NCBI GenBank assembly: GCA_030390025.1
Contig: CM059431.1
Location: forward strand, 112,284,001-112,348,000
Direction of reading: 5' to 3'
DNA length: 64,000 nucleotides
From: Squalus acanthias
Lineage: Eukaryota
Shown here: positions 47,376-59,547 of the stretch, one piece after another
How the letters are laid out: each line of letters starts with the position of its first letter
Position numbering within the stretch: position 1 is the stretch's first letter
Program-made: the position numbers and the translations under genes
Notes under the pieces: generated by a model
Databases searched by the model: none
What the model saw: only the letters and a program-made list of their open reading frames with translations
What the model was told of the DNA's origin: nothing

Positions 47376-49732
47376 AAAGAAAGACTTGCATTTATATAGC
47401 GCCTTTCATGACCACCAGACATCTCAAAGCGCCGTATAGCCAATGAAGTACTTTTTTTTTTGACGTGTAGTCACTGTTGTAATGTAGGAAACACAGCAAC
47501 CAAATTGCACACAGCAAGCTCCCACAAACAACACTGTGACAATGACCAGATTATCTGTTTTTGTTATGTTGGTTGATAAATAAATATTGGCCAGGACACC
47601 GGGATAACTCCCGCTGCTCTTCTTCGAAATAGTGCCATGGGATCTTTTATGTCCACCTGAGAAAGCAGACGGGACCTCAGTTTAATGTCTCATCTGAAAG
47701 ACGGCACCTCCGACAGTGCAGCGCTCCCTCAGCACCACACTGGACATAACATAAGAACATAAGAAATAGGAGCAGGAGTAGGCCAATCGGCCCCTCGAGC
47801 CTGCTCCGCCATTCAATAAGATCATGGCTGATCTGATCCTAACCGCCAATCTACTATCTACTATCACAGAACCATCTCCTGCATCTAACAGAATTGCACA
47901 CACGAAATAGGAGCAGAATCAGGCTACACGGTCCCTGGGCCCGCTCCACTACCCACAGGGCCATGACCGATCCGAACCTAGACTCATGTCCAAATTCCTG
48001 CCCGCTCCCCGTAACCCTTAATGCCCTTTACTTCTAGGAAACTGTCTATTTCTGTTTTAAATTTAATTAATGTTGTAGCTTCTACAGCTTTTTGTGGCAG
48101 CATATTCCATGGACCTACCACCCTCTGAGTGAAGTAGTTCCTCCTCATCTCAGTTTTGAAAGAGCAGCCCCTTATTCTAAGACTATGTCCCCTAGTTCTA
48201 GTCTCACCCGTCATCGGGAACATCCTCCCCGCATCCACCCGATCCAACCCCTTCACAATCTTATATGTTTCAATAAGATCGCCTCTCATTCTTCTGAACT
48301 CCAATGAGTAGAGTCCCAATCTACCCAACCTCTCCTCATATGACCACCCCCTCATCCCCGGGATTAACCGAGTGAACCTTTTTTGCACTGCCTCGAGAGC
48401 AAGGATGTCTTTCCTTAAGTAAGGACACCAAAACTGTATGCAGTATTCCAGGTGCGGTCTCACCAATACCTTGTACAACTGAAGCAATACCTCCCTATTT
48501 TTATATTCTATCCCCCTAGCAATGAAAGCCAACATTCCATTTGCCTTCTTAATCACTTGCTGCACCTGCATACTAACCTTTTGAGTTTCGTGCACCAGGA
48601 CCCCCAGATCCCTTTGCACTTCAGTACTCTCCAGTTTCTTGCCATTAAGATAATAAATTGCTCTAGGATTTTTCCTGCCAAAGTGCATCACCTCACACTT
48701 TCCAGTGTTGTATTCCATCTGCCAAATCTCTGCCCACTTACTTAGCCTGTCTATGTCCCCTTGCAGGTTTTTTATGTCCTCCTCACTCACTACTTTCCCT
48801 CCCATCTTTGTATCATCTGCAAATTTTGATATGTTACACTTGGTCCCTTCCTCCAAATCGTTAATATAGATTGTAAAGAGTTGGGGACCCAGCACTGACC
48901 CCTGTGGAACACCACTAGTTACTGATTGCCAGTCTGAGAATGAACCATTTATCCCAACTCTTTGCTTTCTGTTGGATAGCCAATCCTCTATCCATGCCAG
49001 AATATTACCCCCAATCCCGTGATTTTTTACCTTAAGCAATAATCTTTTGTGTGGCACCTTGTCAAATGCCTTTTGGAAGTCTAAATACACTACGTCCACT
49101 GGTTCCCCTTTATCCACTCTATATGTTACTTCCTCAAAGAACTCCAGCAAATTTGTCAAACATGACTTCCCCTTCGTAAAACCATGCTGACTTTGTCCTA
49201 TTAAATTATGATTATCCAAATGTCCTGTTACTGTTTCCTTAATAATGGACTCCAAAATTTTACCTACCACAGATGTTAGGCTAACCGGTCTATAGTTACC
49301 AGCCTTCTGTCTACTGCCCTTTTTAAATAAGGGTGTTACATTAGCAGTTTTCCAGTCTGCCGGGACCTCAGCGGAATCCAGGGAGTTTTGAAAAATTATT
49401 ACCAATGCATCTACAATCCCTACCGCCACTTCCTTCAAGACTCTAGGATGTAAGCCATCAGGTCCAGGTGATTTATCCGCCTTGAGTCCCATTATTTTAC
49501 CGAGTACCACTTCCTTAGTGATTTTGATCGTGTTTAGCTCCTCTCCCCCTATAGCCCCCTGTTTGTCCAGTGTTGGGATATTCTTAGTGTCCTCTACTGT
49601 AAAGACTGATACAAAATATTCATTCAGTGTTTTTACCTAGATTTTTGTGCTCAAGTCCCTGGAGTGGGATCTGAAACCCACAAACCTCCTGACTCAGAGG
49701 CGAGGGTGCTACTCACTGAGCCACAGGCTGAC
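47376..49732 (-). mobile_element. DeuSINE split by a CR1 insertion (SINE parts 47376-47744 and 49626-49732)
   Basis: SINE sequence stops at CACTGGA (47744) and resumes AGTGT..GTGCTCAAGTC..GAGGGTGCTACTCACTGAGCCAC. Confidence 0.85.
47745..49625 (-). mobile_element. Young 5'-truncated CR1 LINE with an uninterrupted RT frame
   Basis: ORF 47984-49510 (508 aa) SPGPDG, NYRPVSL, YLDFQKAFDKV, PQGSVLGP, FADDTK, through to its natural stop; no endonuclease domain. Confidence 0.95.
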
Positions 49733-52670: not shown

Positions 52671-52786
52671 AACATAGTACGGCAAGAGAGCCGCTTGATA
52701 GCGCTGACCAAAACAACGAGGGCAGGAAAGAGCAACATGTAGAAATTAAAGCCCCAAAACTGCAAGGTTCCAAGTCTAGAAAAGGG

Positions 52787-55700
52787 AGTCAATGAGACAG
52801 AATTAATAAATGATCTCATAGTAAAGGATCCTCTAGGAAAGAGTGATCATAGCACGGTTGAATTTCAAATTCAGTTGGAGGGTGAGAAAGTTGCATCTCA
52901 AACCAGTGTCCTGATCTTAAACAAAGGCAATTACAATGGCATGAGGGCAGAACTGGCTAAAGTGGACTGGAAAAATAAATTAAAGGGTAAGACAGTTAAA
53001 ATGCAGTGGCAGACATTTAAGGAGATATTTCATAACTCTCAACAGAAATATATTCCAGTGAGAAAGAAAGATTTTAGGAGAAGGGAGCACCATCCATGGC
53101 TAACTAAGGAAGTAAAGGATGATATCAAATTGAAAACGAAGGCATACAATGTTGCCAAGATTGGTGGGAGACCAGAGAATTGGGAAATTTTTAAAAACCA
53201 GCTAAGGATGACTAAAAAAATAAAGAGAGAGAAGATGAATTATGAGAGTAAACTGGCAAGAAATATTAAAACAGATAGTAAGAGCTTCTACGGGTATATA
53301 AAAAGGAAGAGAGTAGCTAATGTAAACATTGGTCCCTTAGAGGATGAGACTGGGGAATTAATAATGGGGAACGGGGAAATGGCAGAGACTCTGAACAAAT
53401 ATTTTGTATCTGTCTTCACGGTAGAAGACACGAACAACATCCCAAAAATGGATAATCAAGGGGCCACAGGGAGGAGGGAACTAAAGACAATCACTATCAC
53501 TAAGGAAATAGTACTCGGTAAAATAATGGAACTAAAAGACGACAAGTCCCCTGGACCAGATGGCCTGCATCTGTAAGGGGGACGTGTCTCAGACGGTGCT
53601 GGTGCGGGGTTAGGCCTTCGTTGCCTAATACTATTGCTTGCTCTGGTCTCCGGCCAGCCTTTTTGCAATAAGCACCTGTGAGTGGTTCGAAGCACCTGAG
53701 AGTGGTTCGACCCACTCGCCCTTACGGTTCTAACACTGGACTTAGGTGCAAGGAGCTGTAATGCAGAGAAAACTCAAATAGACCCGGTTGAATAGTACGA
53801 AATGGAAATCTTTATTGCATGGCGTCTAAAATCATGAAATACATGTCATAGGCGCAAATCAACGATAGTACAAGTATACATACATTCATAAAGCTTGGTC
53901 TGTGGAAATGGAGAACACACGGCACATCGTAGAAAGGGGAACACATTATACCTTAACCTTATTAAAAACCACCCTCCCTTAACATTGCCTACACTACGTC
54001 TAGATTTGTAGGATCAGAAAACATGCTCACCACTCGTGTTACTTCGGAGATTTTAAAGTGGGGCACTCAGCTCGTTTCGCTGCAGCGCCTGACTGTCACG
54101 TGTTTGGAAGGGTCTCTGCACCCCACTTGTTTATTTTCGCTGCTGCGACAAGCAGGCCAGACTCCCTGTTGTCATGAAGAACTTGACGGACCTCGGACAC
54201 AGTTCAAAGAAGAGTCTTCCTGTGCTCGATACAGGTTGTCGGTAGAACTCAAAGAAAAGTTCTTTATTTATATTTTCAGGCGCGGTCGGGGTTTACTGAC
54301 CGTGGCGGCACGTGGATTCTTCTCCTCTTCTTCTCGTCTCTTCGGGCCTCCGGGTCCAGTTACCGACACTCAGGATGGTGTACCCTGTTACTTGCCCTTG
54401 TCGGGGCGGCTCGTTCCGATTGAGCTCCACCCAACACTCGCATAACTGACCAGTACGGCTAAGAGTCAAGAGTCAACAAAGTCCAGAGAAACACAAAGTC
54501 CAGCCCTAAGGAAAAGCTTCAGCAAGGGTCCGCCGAGAGATAAGAGAATAAGAGTTCAGCAGTCAGCAGCGAGATAAGAGCCCGATGGACATTTGTTCTC
54601 CATAGTTATAGTGATGTGTCCGCTTATCTCCCGCTCAAATCTTAATGTTTGTCCTTTGTGTAATATTGGCGCTCAAAACTCCCAGCATGGGGCGGTTATC
54701 TTCCTTAACGGGTTTCGGTAGCACCTGAAACTGGCCAACTATCCGTTAATGTTTTCCCCATTGTTGACCCAGCCAGGATGTGTATGAATCGTCTCCCTGA
54801 CTGGTTTTGGGGGCCCCCGAATACTTGCTTAATCACCCGTCAATGTCTCTCTCATTGTAGAGCCGGGGGGGTATTTGTGTATTGATGTGTCTGGATGGGC
54901 CTTCGATTGCCCACTACAATGATCCTTTCTGTGCATAGGAAAACGATTCCAGCATTTATATCTTTGCTATTGTTCCAAATGCAAACGGGTTGTATCCTGT
55001 CTTTATCAGTGTTTACCGAGTATAATCCAATCTTATACGGAAATGTATATTCGACGCCATCTTGTCTGCCCACTGTGATTCTGGAAGCTTCTGCCACGAT
55101 GCGCAGCGGCCATTTTACAGGCTTCTGTGTCCTTTATTATCAGGACAGCATTTTGTTTAATAAAACTGATCAAACGAATCTGCTTCTCTTATGTTATTTT
55201 GAATCGCGATAATTGCGAAACTTTACACATCCCAGGGTCTTAAAAGAAGTGGCTGCAGAGATAGTGGATGCATTGGTTGCAATATATCAAAATTCCCTGG
55301 ACTCTGGAGGTGTCCCAGCGGATTGGAAAACCGCAAATGTAACACCCCTATTTAAGAAAGGAGGGAGACAGAAAGCAGGAAACTATAGACCAGTTAGCCT
55401 AACACCTGTCGTTGGGAAAATGCTGGAGTCCTTCATTAAGGAAGCAGTAGCAGGGCATTTGGAAAATCATAATGCAGTCAAGCAGAGTCAGCCTGGTTTT
55501 AGGAAAGGGAAATCATGTTTAACAAATTTGCTGGAGTTCTTTGAGGATGTAACGAGCAGGGTGGACAAAGGTGAGCCAGTGGATGTGGTGTATTTGGATT
55601 TCCAGAAGGCATTCGATAAGGTGCCACATAAAAGGTTACTTCATAAGATAAGAGCTCACGGAGTTGGGGGTAATATATTAGCATGGATAGAGAATTGGCT

Positions 55701-56779
55701 AACTAACAGAAAGCGGAGAGTCGGGATAAATGGGTCATTTTTTGGTTGGCAAATGGTAACTAGTGGGGTGCCACAGGGATCAGTGCTGGGGCCTCAGCTG
55801 TTTACAATCTACATTAATGACTTGGATGAAGGGACCGAGTGTAATGTAGCCAAGTTTGCGGACGATACAAAGATGGGTGGGAAAGCAAGTTGTGCAGAGG
55901 ACTCAAAGAATCTGCAAAGGGATATAGACAGGCTAAGTGAGTCGGCAAACATTTGGCAGATGGAGTATAATGTGGGAAAGTGCGAGGTTATCCACTTTGG
56001 CAGGAAAAATAAAAAAGCAAATTATTATTTAAATGGAGAGAGATTACAAAATGTTACAGTTCAGAGGGACCTGGGGGTCCTTGTGCATGAAACAAAAAAA
56101 GTTAGCATGCAGATACAGCAAGTAATCAAAAAGGCAAATGGAATGTTGGCCTTTATTTCAAGGAGGTTGGAGTATAAAAGCAGGGAAGTCCTGCTATAAC
56201 TGTACAGGGTATTGGTGAGACCACACCTTGAGTACTGCATACAGTTTTGGTCTCCTTATTTAAGGTAGGATATACTTGCAGTGGAGGCAGTTCAGAGACG
56301 ATTCACTAGGTTAATTCCAGAGATGAGGGGGTTGACTTATGAGGAAAGGTTGAGCAGGCTGGGCCTATACGCATTGGAACTTAGAAGAATGAGAGTTGAT
56401 CTTATTGAAACATATAAGATACTGAGGGGGCTCGACAAGGTAGTAGCAGAGAGGATGTTTCCCCTCGTGGGGAAATCTAGAACTCGGGGGCATAGTTTCA
56501 GAATAAAGGGTCGCCCTTTTAGAACTGAGATGAAGAGGAATTTCTTCTCTGAGGGTCGTAAATTTGTGGAATTCTCTGCCCCAGAGAGCTGTGGAGGCTG
56601 GGTCATTAAATACATTTAAAGTGGAGATAGATAAATTTTTGCAAGATAAGGGAGTGAAGGGTTATGGGGAGCGGGCAGGGAAGTGGCTTTGAGCCCAAGA
56701 TCAGCCATGATCTTATTGAATGGCGGAGCAGGCTCGAGGGGCCAAGTGGCCTATTCCTGCTCCTATTTCTTATGTTCTT
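52787..56779 (+). mobile_element. CR1 LINE (end of endonuclease, RT, 3' UTR), split by a solo LTR
   Basis: LGKSDH..SPGPDGLH|PRVLKEVA..FADDTK..; (TTCTTATG) tail; AAAGGG at 52781-52786 and 56780-56785 as probable TSD; late stops near 56197 and 56266. Confidence 0.93.
53572..55227 (-). mobile_element. 1656-bp solo LTR (retrovirus or LTR retrotransposon)
   Basis: TGTAA..TTACA termini; exact 4-bp TSD CATC (53568-53571, 55228-55231) inside the CR1 frame; minus-strand CCAAT, AGATAAG, TATAA (54606-54610) and AATAAA (53811-53816); CpG-rich. Confidence 0.88.
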
Positions 56780-57233
56780 AAAGGGTAGCCAGCACCAGCT
56801 TCCTCCCATACAAGGAGTTATGATAATTAAGCCCCACCCCAAAATTCATGTCATTTGGGCAAACTGCACTCTGGTGCTCAACTCGACCACATAAAATGGT
56901 TAAGCCACTGGTGGGGCCTGTCGAAATCGGATTTGTAAGATTCTCAAAATTCACAGATCCCCCAAAACTCGAAGACAAACCCTAAGGAAAAAGACTTGGG
57001 ACTCTTTTTCTAACTATTTCAGGGTGGTGAAATGCATTGGGCCTAACCGAAGGACATTTTAGAGCAAAAACCAAGATTTGGTATTTTAAAAGACATGTCT
57101 GGACTTGTAAGGGAGAAAAGGCTGTAAAGGAAGGTGGGTTCAACCTCTGTAAAAACAGTTTGGAGTTAATGTAAACTGTCTGGGGAACCGCATGACCTCG
57201 CTGGGAGTTAAATCGGCCCCTATCAGACATTAA

Positions 57234-58128
57234 GGGGTAAAAATTCAGTTGGTTGCGCCTCCCGTTAGCGCCTTAAGAGGGCGCTAATGGGGCACAAAGC
57301 CGCTAACGCCCGGGCGCAGCGATGTTTGCGCCGCTCGGGAACTTAACTAGAGATTGTGCGGCGGCGCTAAAACTTACCGCTGCGACCACCTGCGCGCGCA
57401 GATTGTGACGTCATTCCATGGTGCAACGCCCTTGTGGCGCCCCGGAGCGGAAATTGAGTGGCGCCCCCTGCCTTACCGCCTGGCGCATCCAATAACCGGA
57501 AGACTGGAACGCTATCAATCGCTGTGGGGCTGGGGGGGGCGCTATTTAAAGGGGGCCTCTTCCTGTCTTTTATTGTTGGTGGCATTTTTGAACTATGCAT
57601 TCTGAGAGAGAGAGAGGGAGAGACTTCTGGAGAGATTCAACGTTGTGTGAAGGAGTTTTGGGTACTGAGCAGCACTTTGCAGGTTCATTTTGATTTGCCA
57701 TTCCTTGTATCGATTTAGCAGAGACTGTGGGAGTTGCACTCTGAGCTCTTTGCCTGGTACTCTCCATTGTTCTTTCCAGCACATTTGATGTGCAAGTCTC
57801 TCCAGGCCGAGATTCAAGGCTGCAATGAACAGGATGTGGATGGAAAGCAAGATTAACCATCCCCTTTAAGAACTGGCCCGTGCCATTGTGTGTGTGTTCC
57901 ATTGCTGACTGACATTACATGAGCTTCGCCAGCGCTCTGAGGTAGCGCCTCACTCCTTGGCCTTTGCGCCTTAAGACAGGTGTGCAGCGCCTGATTTAGC
58001 ACTCCACTCACCTCCCGGGGCGGTAAAAGTGAAGTTTCCAGTCAGTGCCGATAATTAGCGCCAGGCGCTAATATTTGCGTCCAGACGATATTTGCGCCCC
58101 AAATGGGGCGCGACCTAATTTTTACCCC
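57234..58128. mobile_element. 895-bp PIF/Harbinger MITE
   Basis: Perfect 12-bp TIRs GGGGTAAAAATT / AATTTTTACCCC; exact TAA TSD (57231-57233, 58129-58131). Confidence 0.9.
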
Positions 58129-59547
58129 TAACATCCTAACAATAAACCCGAGGAAAAGCAGTCTCCACCCAAATTTACAGAGCCCATCAAAACATGCATA
58201 AAACAGATCACTTCGGCCTACTCTGTAGAAATCCCAGGCCCAGTCAAGAAACTCACAACTTGGGAACAATCAACTATGATTAAGTGGCAGATCGACAGGA
58301 TGGAGCCATCCCGAAACCACTTCACACATTAATAAACAAGTTACCATTAACGAGCCCGCCAGGATCTGATTTGGCGCACAGATAAGGAAGCTTCAATTAG
58401 TATAATTGAAGGCCCGTTCTCAACCTGAAAAAAAAGGAAGAAGGACAAGTTCATCCACGGAGGCATTCACCGCAACACAGTTCTCCAGCACCACCGTTCA
58501 ACGTTCCATGTCCAGCCAGGAGGTCGACAGCTCGAAGACCAGACCATTCAGCAAAGGAGGCCAACAGCTCCCGAAGTAGGCCGACACATGGAAGAAACCA
58601 GAGCGACCGCCTCAGTGACCATCGGACACCTCGCGGCAACAAGGGCCTCACGAAAACAACCAACCGAACATCACCACCAATATTGGGCCACCGCGACCAA
58701 AGAAGACCAACTCTGAGAAAATCCGAAGATCCGCAAAGTTTCCACTCTACAATCTACTCCTGACTTACCCCTGGGTAAGATTTTCCCCAAAGACTCTAAA
58801 CCCTACTTCTAAACCAAAGAAAAGTGGGTACTCACCTGATAGATCCAATACGCACCCTACCGCATCAGCGGACTCGAAGACTGACCAGCTAAGCAGTTGA
58901 AGTCCTCTACCACGTATGGGGTACGGCAGACACCAACCAACATATAGAGCGAACCCCAAAACCGCGAACTAGCCCAACTGTCAAGGATTCTGGTGAGTAT
59001 CATCCCTGGTCCTCTAGAGTCCAGATTGGGAGGGGTGAAGTATTCTTCTAATGTTATTTCCATCGTTTCTACCGAAGTGTTCCCAACTTTATTAGAGTGT
59101 TAAGAGTGTTTGTGTTGTGTTTTACTCTCTTGAATAAAGATCAAAGTTCTTGCATCAAAACCAGTTGTCTGCTGCACTTTTTGTCATAACCCCCAAATAA
59201 GTCCAAGGTCTAGAACCCAGGGAGTGGGAGCGATTCGAACCGCTCAGAAGTCAGAGGTGAAGCTGACACAAACCACCACCCCAGCAGGCCAACCATTCCC
59301 AAGGTTATATCAAAACTTGTGTCTTTTTGGAAAAAGCATCAATCTTTGGTTGCATTTCAATCCCTGCATGAGTTTTCTTTGTGTGGAGGGTGTCAATTTT
59401 ACACCGTAACATTGTTTGTTATACTTTCTTACAGTATTATTGACTGTTTTAGCAGAAGAACTTGCAGTGAACAAAATGCCGGGAAGGGAATTCCTCTGGG
59501 AATTCCTATTGTACTCCTATCACTAGCTCAGGACTCGCGTTTATAGA

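Follow-up and report, generated by a model that had tools for sequence, protein, structure and literature searches.

The window analysed here is a stretch of 64,000 nt from the Squalus acanthias contig CM059431.1. It carries two CR1-type LINE frames that are 79% alike and inverted relative to one another (47984–49636, minus strand; 52743–56700, plus strand), and inside the second of these lies a solo LTR of 1,656 nt with TG..CA ends and a 4-bp target duplication (LTR-A, 53572–55227, minus strand). A further solo LTR follows on the plus strand (LTR-B, 56934–59282); at its 3′ end it lacks the last bases found in other copies. LTR-B is interrupted at about 57234–58128 by an insertion of ~895 nt with 12-bp terminal inverted repeats and TAA at both sides, which by its features we take to be a PIF/Harbinger-like MITE; a 97.7% identical copy sits at another position in a different LTR-B copy (L053). 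The poly(A) signals AATAAA are found at 53811–53816 (minus) in LTR-A and at 59133–59138 (plus) in LTR-B.

The original prediction had drawn attention to a short cassette after these signals, made up of a half resembling an A box or D arm and a half resembling a B box or T arm, and had read it as an undescribed U5 element acting as a tRNA mimic, Pol III unit or TFIIIC insulator. Both strings on which it was based are present (53700–53744, minus, and 59198–59245, plus), at 66 nt from AATAAA in LTR-A and 59 nt in LTR-B, as is the 19/20 tandem duplication of 20 nt at 53671–53710 (minus), which is private to the window copy (1 of 30 family-A copies). The two LTRs are not the pair belonging to one element; they are solo LTRs of different high-copy families, A and B, for which a first look at the 3.7-Gb genome gave 4,914 and 4,741 candidates, respectively, with 40 of each being scored. 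They are poorly alignable, as had been claimed (best blastn match with word size 7, E = 0.3), and the motif is real and stands out from these unalignable flanks; the compound motif arose in none of 20,000 order-1 Markov resamples of one LTR-B copy. Within each family its conservation is equalled by 10% (A) or 34% (B) of windows of the same length, the sequence between AATAAA and the motif is as conserved as the motif itself, and the position of the motif is constant. In conservation within families the motif does not exceed the neighbouring R/U5. In metagenomes, 120 stretches matched the compound motif; these had no LTR similarity, hairpin stem or PBS, and so are chance matches of a loose pattern. 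The motif is borne out as a conserved and, we believe, functional tRNA-related element of U5.

Element families and their primer

Full-length relatives of families A and B carry an identical 18-nt primer binding site (PBS) just after the 5′ LTR. It is the complement of the 3′ end of a host tRNA (433 genomic matches against none for the control), and all three of the PBS-matching tRNA copies retrieved were tRNA-Arg(TCG). This primer is common to all ten families compared. A variant of the PBS occurs in 389 elements, and the five of them retrieved (L220–L224) have a family-A U5; the variant presumably corresponds to a second tRNA-Arg(TCG) isodecoder, and priming appears, from these sequences, to alternate between isodecoders. 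Long tandem arrays with a period of ~1.6 kb on C26 (39.0–42.2 Mb) match the 3′ end of tRNA-Arg(TCG), and the two C26 copies of this tRNA that were retrieved are intron-containing genes.

One copy of family B codes for a Gag that has a zinc knuckle, followed by a frame that looks protease-like by eye, RT, two RNase H domains and integrase. The order in its Pol is tether-type RT_RNaseH (E = 2e-19), RNase_H (E = 3e-11) and rve, that is, in the domain search a tether and a second RNase H lie between RT and IN, as in lokiretroviruses. The best solved-structure match across both RNase H regions was MLV RT/RNase H. The Env of lokiretroviruses is related to the fusion glycoprotein of Mononegavirales and has a basic cleavage site. 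In the present Env an R-Q-R-R site is seen together with putative F-protein-like features, with no Pfam matches; a feature search gave 0.95 for Baculo_F clusters and 0.91 for Fusion_gly F0, with a low recognition score. The nearest RTs are from shark, frogs and coelacanth (48–66% identity, the closest being a shark RT at 66%) and the closest named Gag relative is from skate (62%). Lokiretroviruses were described as carrying gag, pol and env between LTRs, with the Pol order PR-RT-tether-RNase H-IN and an Env that resembles F proteins and contains an R-X-R-R site (Wang and Han, PMC7947760), and the present elements are like them in gag-pol-env order, tether Pol and Env cleavage site, and possibly in the F-protein-like features of Env. 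A lokiretrovirus-like affiliation fits these elements, which are placed here by their domain layout.

The start of the PBS is overlapped by an ATG in frame with gag in families A, B, B′ and C, so that the PBS itself would code for the first Gag residues, and a skate Gag protein begins likewise; the ATG of families E, F and K is ~55 nt further downstream. The Gag of family E is 34% identical to that of A and 52% to that of B. Between A (L006/L061) and B (L045/L043) the Gag N-terminus is 42% identical and Env 79% identical over 204 aa, a contrast hinting at recombination, which could also lie behind the sharing of a U5 hairpin (see below) by A and B when it is absent from E, the closer relative of B in Gag. 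The env region of one family-A copy (L061:4041–6043) contains a Myb/SANT-like frame, probably a Harbinger-type insertion, and the L061 frames scanned gave no pol domains.

The predicted U5–leader helix and the junction strand

The half of the motif that had been likened to an A box or D arm is, judged from sequence comparison, one strand of a long predicted U5–leader helix, the partner of which (PBS end plus leader) is present in full-length elements only. The eight bases before AGAACC, designated octamer X (53732–53739, minus, in LTR-A; 59203–59210, plus, in LTR-B), complement the last three bases of the PBS and the next five, giving a proximal U5–leader stem that in the full-length family-B relative L045 is Watson–Crick at 8/8 positions. 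X is preceded by TAAGT (53740–53744, minus; 59198–59202, plus), a candidate internal-loop strand that is kept in families A, B, B′ and C and is a weak complement of the primer anticodon arm. In the folds further helical segments continue on the 5′ side of TAAGT, in the direction of the poly(A) signal. Its distal 5′ strand maps to 53748–53794 (minus) in LTR-A, from folds and duplexes of full-length relatives, and to 59161–59192 (plus) in LTR-B, from L045, and the partner, ~6–50 nt after the PBS, is missing from the solo LTR. In fold models the helix amounts to ~35–40 bp and reaches over the start of the gag frame. A full-length stretch folded at z −2.80 (1 of 200) and the solo LTR of the window with its LINE flank at z −1.37 (17 of 200).

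Pairing of X was followed in a sample taken from genome-wide searches with leader variants (first 100 places of each search), from which 46 small stretches were chosen with rare variants included. Among recurrent variants X pairs at 8/8 positions in A (three leader variants), B and B′, and at 7/8 with a U-U mismatch in one A variant and in C. The pairs seen are A-U or G-C at position 3, G-C, A-U or G-U at position 4 and, depending on family, U-A, G-C or A-U at position 5. Over 34 elements representing 15 distinct X/partner combinations, positions 3–5 pair in a fraction of 0.76 as compared with 0.55 ± 0.05 for shuffled partners (2 of 10,000). The exceptions among the 34 are five picks of rare leader variants that break one to four pairs, five elements with the U-U mismatch, two with a one-base bulge and two with an interrupted leader. 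The letters of the supposed D arm covary with the leader and not with each other.

When each U5 was paired with its own and with foreign leaders in a matrix of ten families (one copy per family), the means were −37.4 kcal/mol for own leaders versus −26.0 ± 4.8 kcal/mol for foreign ones. The own leader was best in 7/10 rows and 8/10 columns, a result equalled in none of 100,000 permutations, although as the families are related and not independent these permutation counts overstate the significance. An earlier ten-row matrix also had the own leader best in 7/10 rows; there family F, for which L217 with its interrupted leader was used, yielded no signal (4 of 60 shuffles). For the final matrix L228 was used for F and L220 for A, two A subfamilies were dropped, and K and M were added. 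In L216–L218 the leader is broken up by ~57-nt tandem repeats of a unit made of LTR end and PBS. Family E retains the helix despite a stop in the frame through its PBS, which argues that the pairing is not a by-product of coding. Four contig runs on L006 gave letter changes compatible with pairing in both strands of the helix; these were unphased and their RNA status was guessed, and no weight was placed on them. Overall the predicted helix is supported by covariation.

Beside X lies the junction strand (AGAACC, 53726–53731, minus, in LTR-A; TAGAACC, 59211–59217, plus, in LTR-B), in which GAACC is the complement of primer T-arm positions 52–56. This candidate PAS- or U5-TΨC-like contact, site 1, would amount to 4–5 bp (−7 kcal/mol). 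A blind search with one copy per family took the best U5 match to the PBS end and found GAAC(C/T) within 1–3 nt after it in six of the ten families; GATTC or GAATC directly followed the best match in two more, in family K the search picked another site and the X-GAAC layout was recognized by eye, and in family M the layout was absent. Next comes segment Y (53719–53725, minus; 59219–59227, plus), predicted to form a U5-IR-like stem with the 3′ end of the LTR (53573–53579, minus, in LTR-A; the C-rich end near 59273–59282, by reference to L045, in LTR-B). There are 7/7 pairs in A-type LTRs and 8–9 pairs in B-type LTRs, A spacers scored −11 to −13 with A ends versus −7 to −8 with most B ends, and the stem is predicted to vary in step between the two types. 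The hairpin comes last, so that the order of the cassette is helix strand, single-stranded anti-T-arm site, LTR-end stem, hairpin. Three-strand ensembles with unmodified tRNA placed the T arm differently from copy to copy and site to site (P from 0 to 0.95). Site 1 was paired with P 0.57–0.73 in L006, three other A copies made little use of either site (at most 0.18 for site 1), site 2 (in the hairpin) was paired with P ~0.95 in B and ~0.75 in B′, and in families C, E, G and H the probabilities were low or the T arm went to other places. We infer that the GAAC sites may pair with the T arm of the annealed primer.

The hairpin and rival explanations

The hairpin (53700–53717, minus, with loop TCGAAC; 59228–59245, plus, with TTCGAAC in the loop) is present in five of the ten families, and its stem closes a loop of 6 nt in A or 8 nt in B, unlike the 5-bp stem and 7-nt loop of the T arm to which it had been compared. 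The compensatory change noted between A and B was confirmed and a second one distinguishes K from A, the changes falling at two stem positions. In the loop TCGAAC is fixed save for CpG-type changes and the two 5′ letters vary; a pattern that matched 75 of 100 loci (missing the six B′ copies and all the hairpin-less families) gave T in 75, C in 71 and G in 72 of these for the TCG letters. The loop constitutes site 2, a 7-bp complement of the primer T arm. Loop and T arm pair at −10.7 and −11.2 kcal/mol, compared with −9.2 and −6.3 for the hairpin itself and −3.7 and −5.1 for the self-duplex. The hairpin is probably a second or regulated primer-activation site, partly masked by its own stem, and this is the weakest step of our interpretation. 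After the hairpin, B-type LTRs have AGTCAGA (within 59250–59267 of the window), the complement of the 5′ strand of the primer anticodon stem, which is paired in a local hairpin; it is absent from family A.

The reading with which the motif had first been presented, an independent tRNA mimic or Pol III gene, and its own suggested alternative, an inserted SINE head, retain next to no probability. By eye the halves do resemble D and T arms, and the GCACCT/AGGTGC pairing pointed out earlier can close a local stem in the family-A cassette (z −1.70), but it has no counterpart in family B (partly by eye), where the cassette alone is unfolded (z +0.86). ARAGORN found no tRNA gene in the window, and Rfam gave no match at the gathering score in the window nor at E ≤ 1 in seven full-length loci. 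In a type 2 Pol III gene (tRNA, VA or BLV-miRNA type) an A box would stand ~30–60 nt before the B box on one and the same strand. Neither strand has a strict A box (the one loose match, in LTR-B only, lies partly beyond the LTR end), and the letters of the ‘D arm’ covary and pair with the PBS end and leader. A SINE head is also at odds with a position that is fixed in the family. The tRNA likeness appears to be mostly complementarity to the primer T arm. The B-box consensus is GWTCRANNC, which the second half fails in LTR sense in both LTRs but satisfies in antisense, at 53705 (plus), 53685 (plus, in the duplicate copy) and 59240 (minus). The hairpin sequence might accordingly act at the DNA level, as an insulator or extra site for TFIIIC, given the perfect antisense GTTCGANNC core in LTR-A and LTR-B and the coincidence of the two variable loop letters with the NN positions of the B box. 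We regard this as quite improbable, because, besides the missing A box, two compensatory stem changes are needless for DNA binding, and site 1, which is more widely kept, fails the consensus. Moreover the CpG in the family-B hairpin departs in 0.111 of copies versus 0.067–0.093 at other CpGs; a motif no better kept than R/U5 with ordinary CpG decay speaks against selection on inserted copies as TFIIIC sites, although such decay does not argue against use of these sites during the life cycle of the element.

Other explanations accept an RNA role for the motif. It is unlikely, though compatible with a role in primer binding, that the R/U5–leader helix serves mainly for packaging or translation control with the GAAC sites kept for contact with a protein. 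HIV-1 U5-AUG pairing is a comparable precedent, the ~35–40 bp helix covers the gag frame start and an in-frame ATG overlaps the PBS start in A and B, but the conserved unpaired letters are the T-arm complement, at the junction facing the PBS, in eight of ten families. A palindromic kissing loop for genome dimerization seems highly improbable: U5 occurs once in genomic RNA, and families B, B′, C and K have the 6-nt palindrome TTCGAA, but in A the palindrome is 4 nt only, with the weaker of the self-duplexes (−3.7 kcal/mol), and conservation is one-sided, the 3′ side being fixed and the 5′ side variable. The hairpin could also be an anticodon-like element whose UCG loop frees the primer by binding arginyl-tRNA synthetase, in the way that the HIV-1 tRNA-like element (TLE) acts on LysRS (PMC5113203). 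In favour of this are the U5 site near the PBS and TCG in the loop of nearly all of the 75 matched copies; however, the loop is of 6–8 nt, not 7, G precedes UCG in 40 of the 75 copies, so that there is no U33, and the invariant letters run on to AAC, as fits anti-T-arm pairing and not anticodon mimicry. We consider it very unlikely, and because all families share one primer an anticodon role is inseparable from T-loop complementarity. A combined function, in which the hairpin would be a primer-handling device that presents the anticodon of the primer to arginyl-tRNA synthetase while keeping a 7-nt complement of the T arm masked, with handover of tRNA-Arg from the synthetase and a switch between two primer-activation sites, is an unlikely proposition; if true, a TLE-like element would exist for a second time, independently, in a lineage that is sister to retroviruses.

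A candidate initiation domain for reverse transcription

We consider it likely, on the sequence evidence, that the motif is the U5 side of a reverse-transcription initiation domain in lokiretrovirus-like elements primed by tRNA-Arg(TCG). In the genomic RNA of full-length copies, a long helix with interruptions would join R/U5 to the ~50 nt that follow the PBS; its top, supported by covariation, would consist of octamer X with the PBS end and five further nt. A second stem is predicted between segment Y and the LTR end, which would leave GAAC(C/T) unpaired between the two stems and facing the PBS. Once the 3′ end of the tRNA had annealed, the freed T-arm strand GGUUC could pair with GAAC(C/T), as in the ASLV (avian sarcoma/leukosis virus) U5-TΨC and HIV-1 PAS contacts. 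The hairpin, in which a longer stretch complements this T-arm strand and is partly hidden by stem pairing, would probably have a related role. A solo LTR has lost the partner strand, and its remnant therefore looks like half a tRNA.

The layout known from avian sarcoma/leukosis viruses (ASLV) has three parts, a U5–leader stem, a U5-IR stem and a U5-TΨC interaction. The present elements are like ASLV in having a U5–leader stem after the PBS, an LTR-end stem and an unpaired T-arm complement between them. They differ in the primer, which is tRNA-Arg(TCG) here and Trp in ASLV, in the helix, which extends much further, in the direction of the poly(A) signal, and in the extra hairpin with a second T-arm complement in five of ten families. 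The U5-TΨC contact itself exists in avian sarcoma virus (PMC3185550), and HIV-1 has been reported to possess a primer activation signal (PAS) that is masked and is claimed to occur in all retroviruses (PMC11181671, PMC1865047). According to the same two sources, the HIV-1 PAS and three-way junction share with our model a T-arm complement in U5, masking by pairing and a need for sequences 3′ of the PBS for the U5–leader stem to fold (PMC11181671, PMC1865047). The HIV-1 PAS is however 8 nt long and masked in an extended PBS stem (PMC11181671, PMC1865047), whereas here the 4–5 nt of site 1 would lie unpaired at the junction and the 7 nt of site 2 would be masked in a local hairpin. Like the HIV-1 TLE (PMC5113203), the hairpin is in U5 near the PBS with the primer anticodon triplet in its loop, but there is no U-rich loop or U33 and the triplet is also explained by T-loop complementarity.

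Most likely, then, the motif matches a known device, the retroviral initiation domain, in a little-studied lineage, rather than being a tRNA mimic or a gene for a small RNA in its own right. Neither the literature listings nor the main text of PMC7947760 yielded a description of such a structure for lokiretroviruses. Term searches of that main text found no mention of tRNA or PBS, and its table has a Chondrichthyes row of three genomes with no hits (PMC7947760). In the part of its supplement that was searched, the PBS had no full-length match, shorter pieces of it matched internally only, and TCGAACC occurs at 35 places (PMC7947760).

These results also carry a warning, as a T-arm complement reads as a B box on the opposite strand and the partner for pairing is gone from solo LTRs, so that such motifs come to look like tRNA mimics. 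Ten diverged families in one genome offer support from natural covariation that is not easily obtained for HIV or ASLV, where the T-arm contact has been debated. If our interpretation is right, the U5–leader stem and T-arm contact of bird and primate retroviruses would extend to the lokiretrovirus-like lineage, suggesting that the design is an old one.
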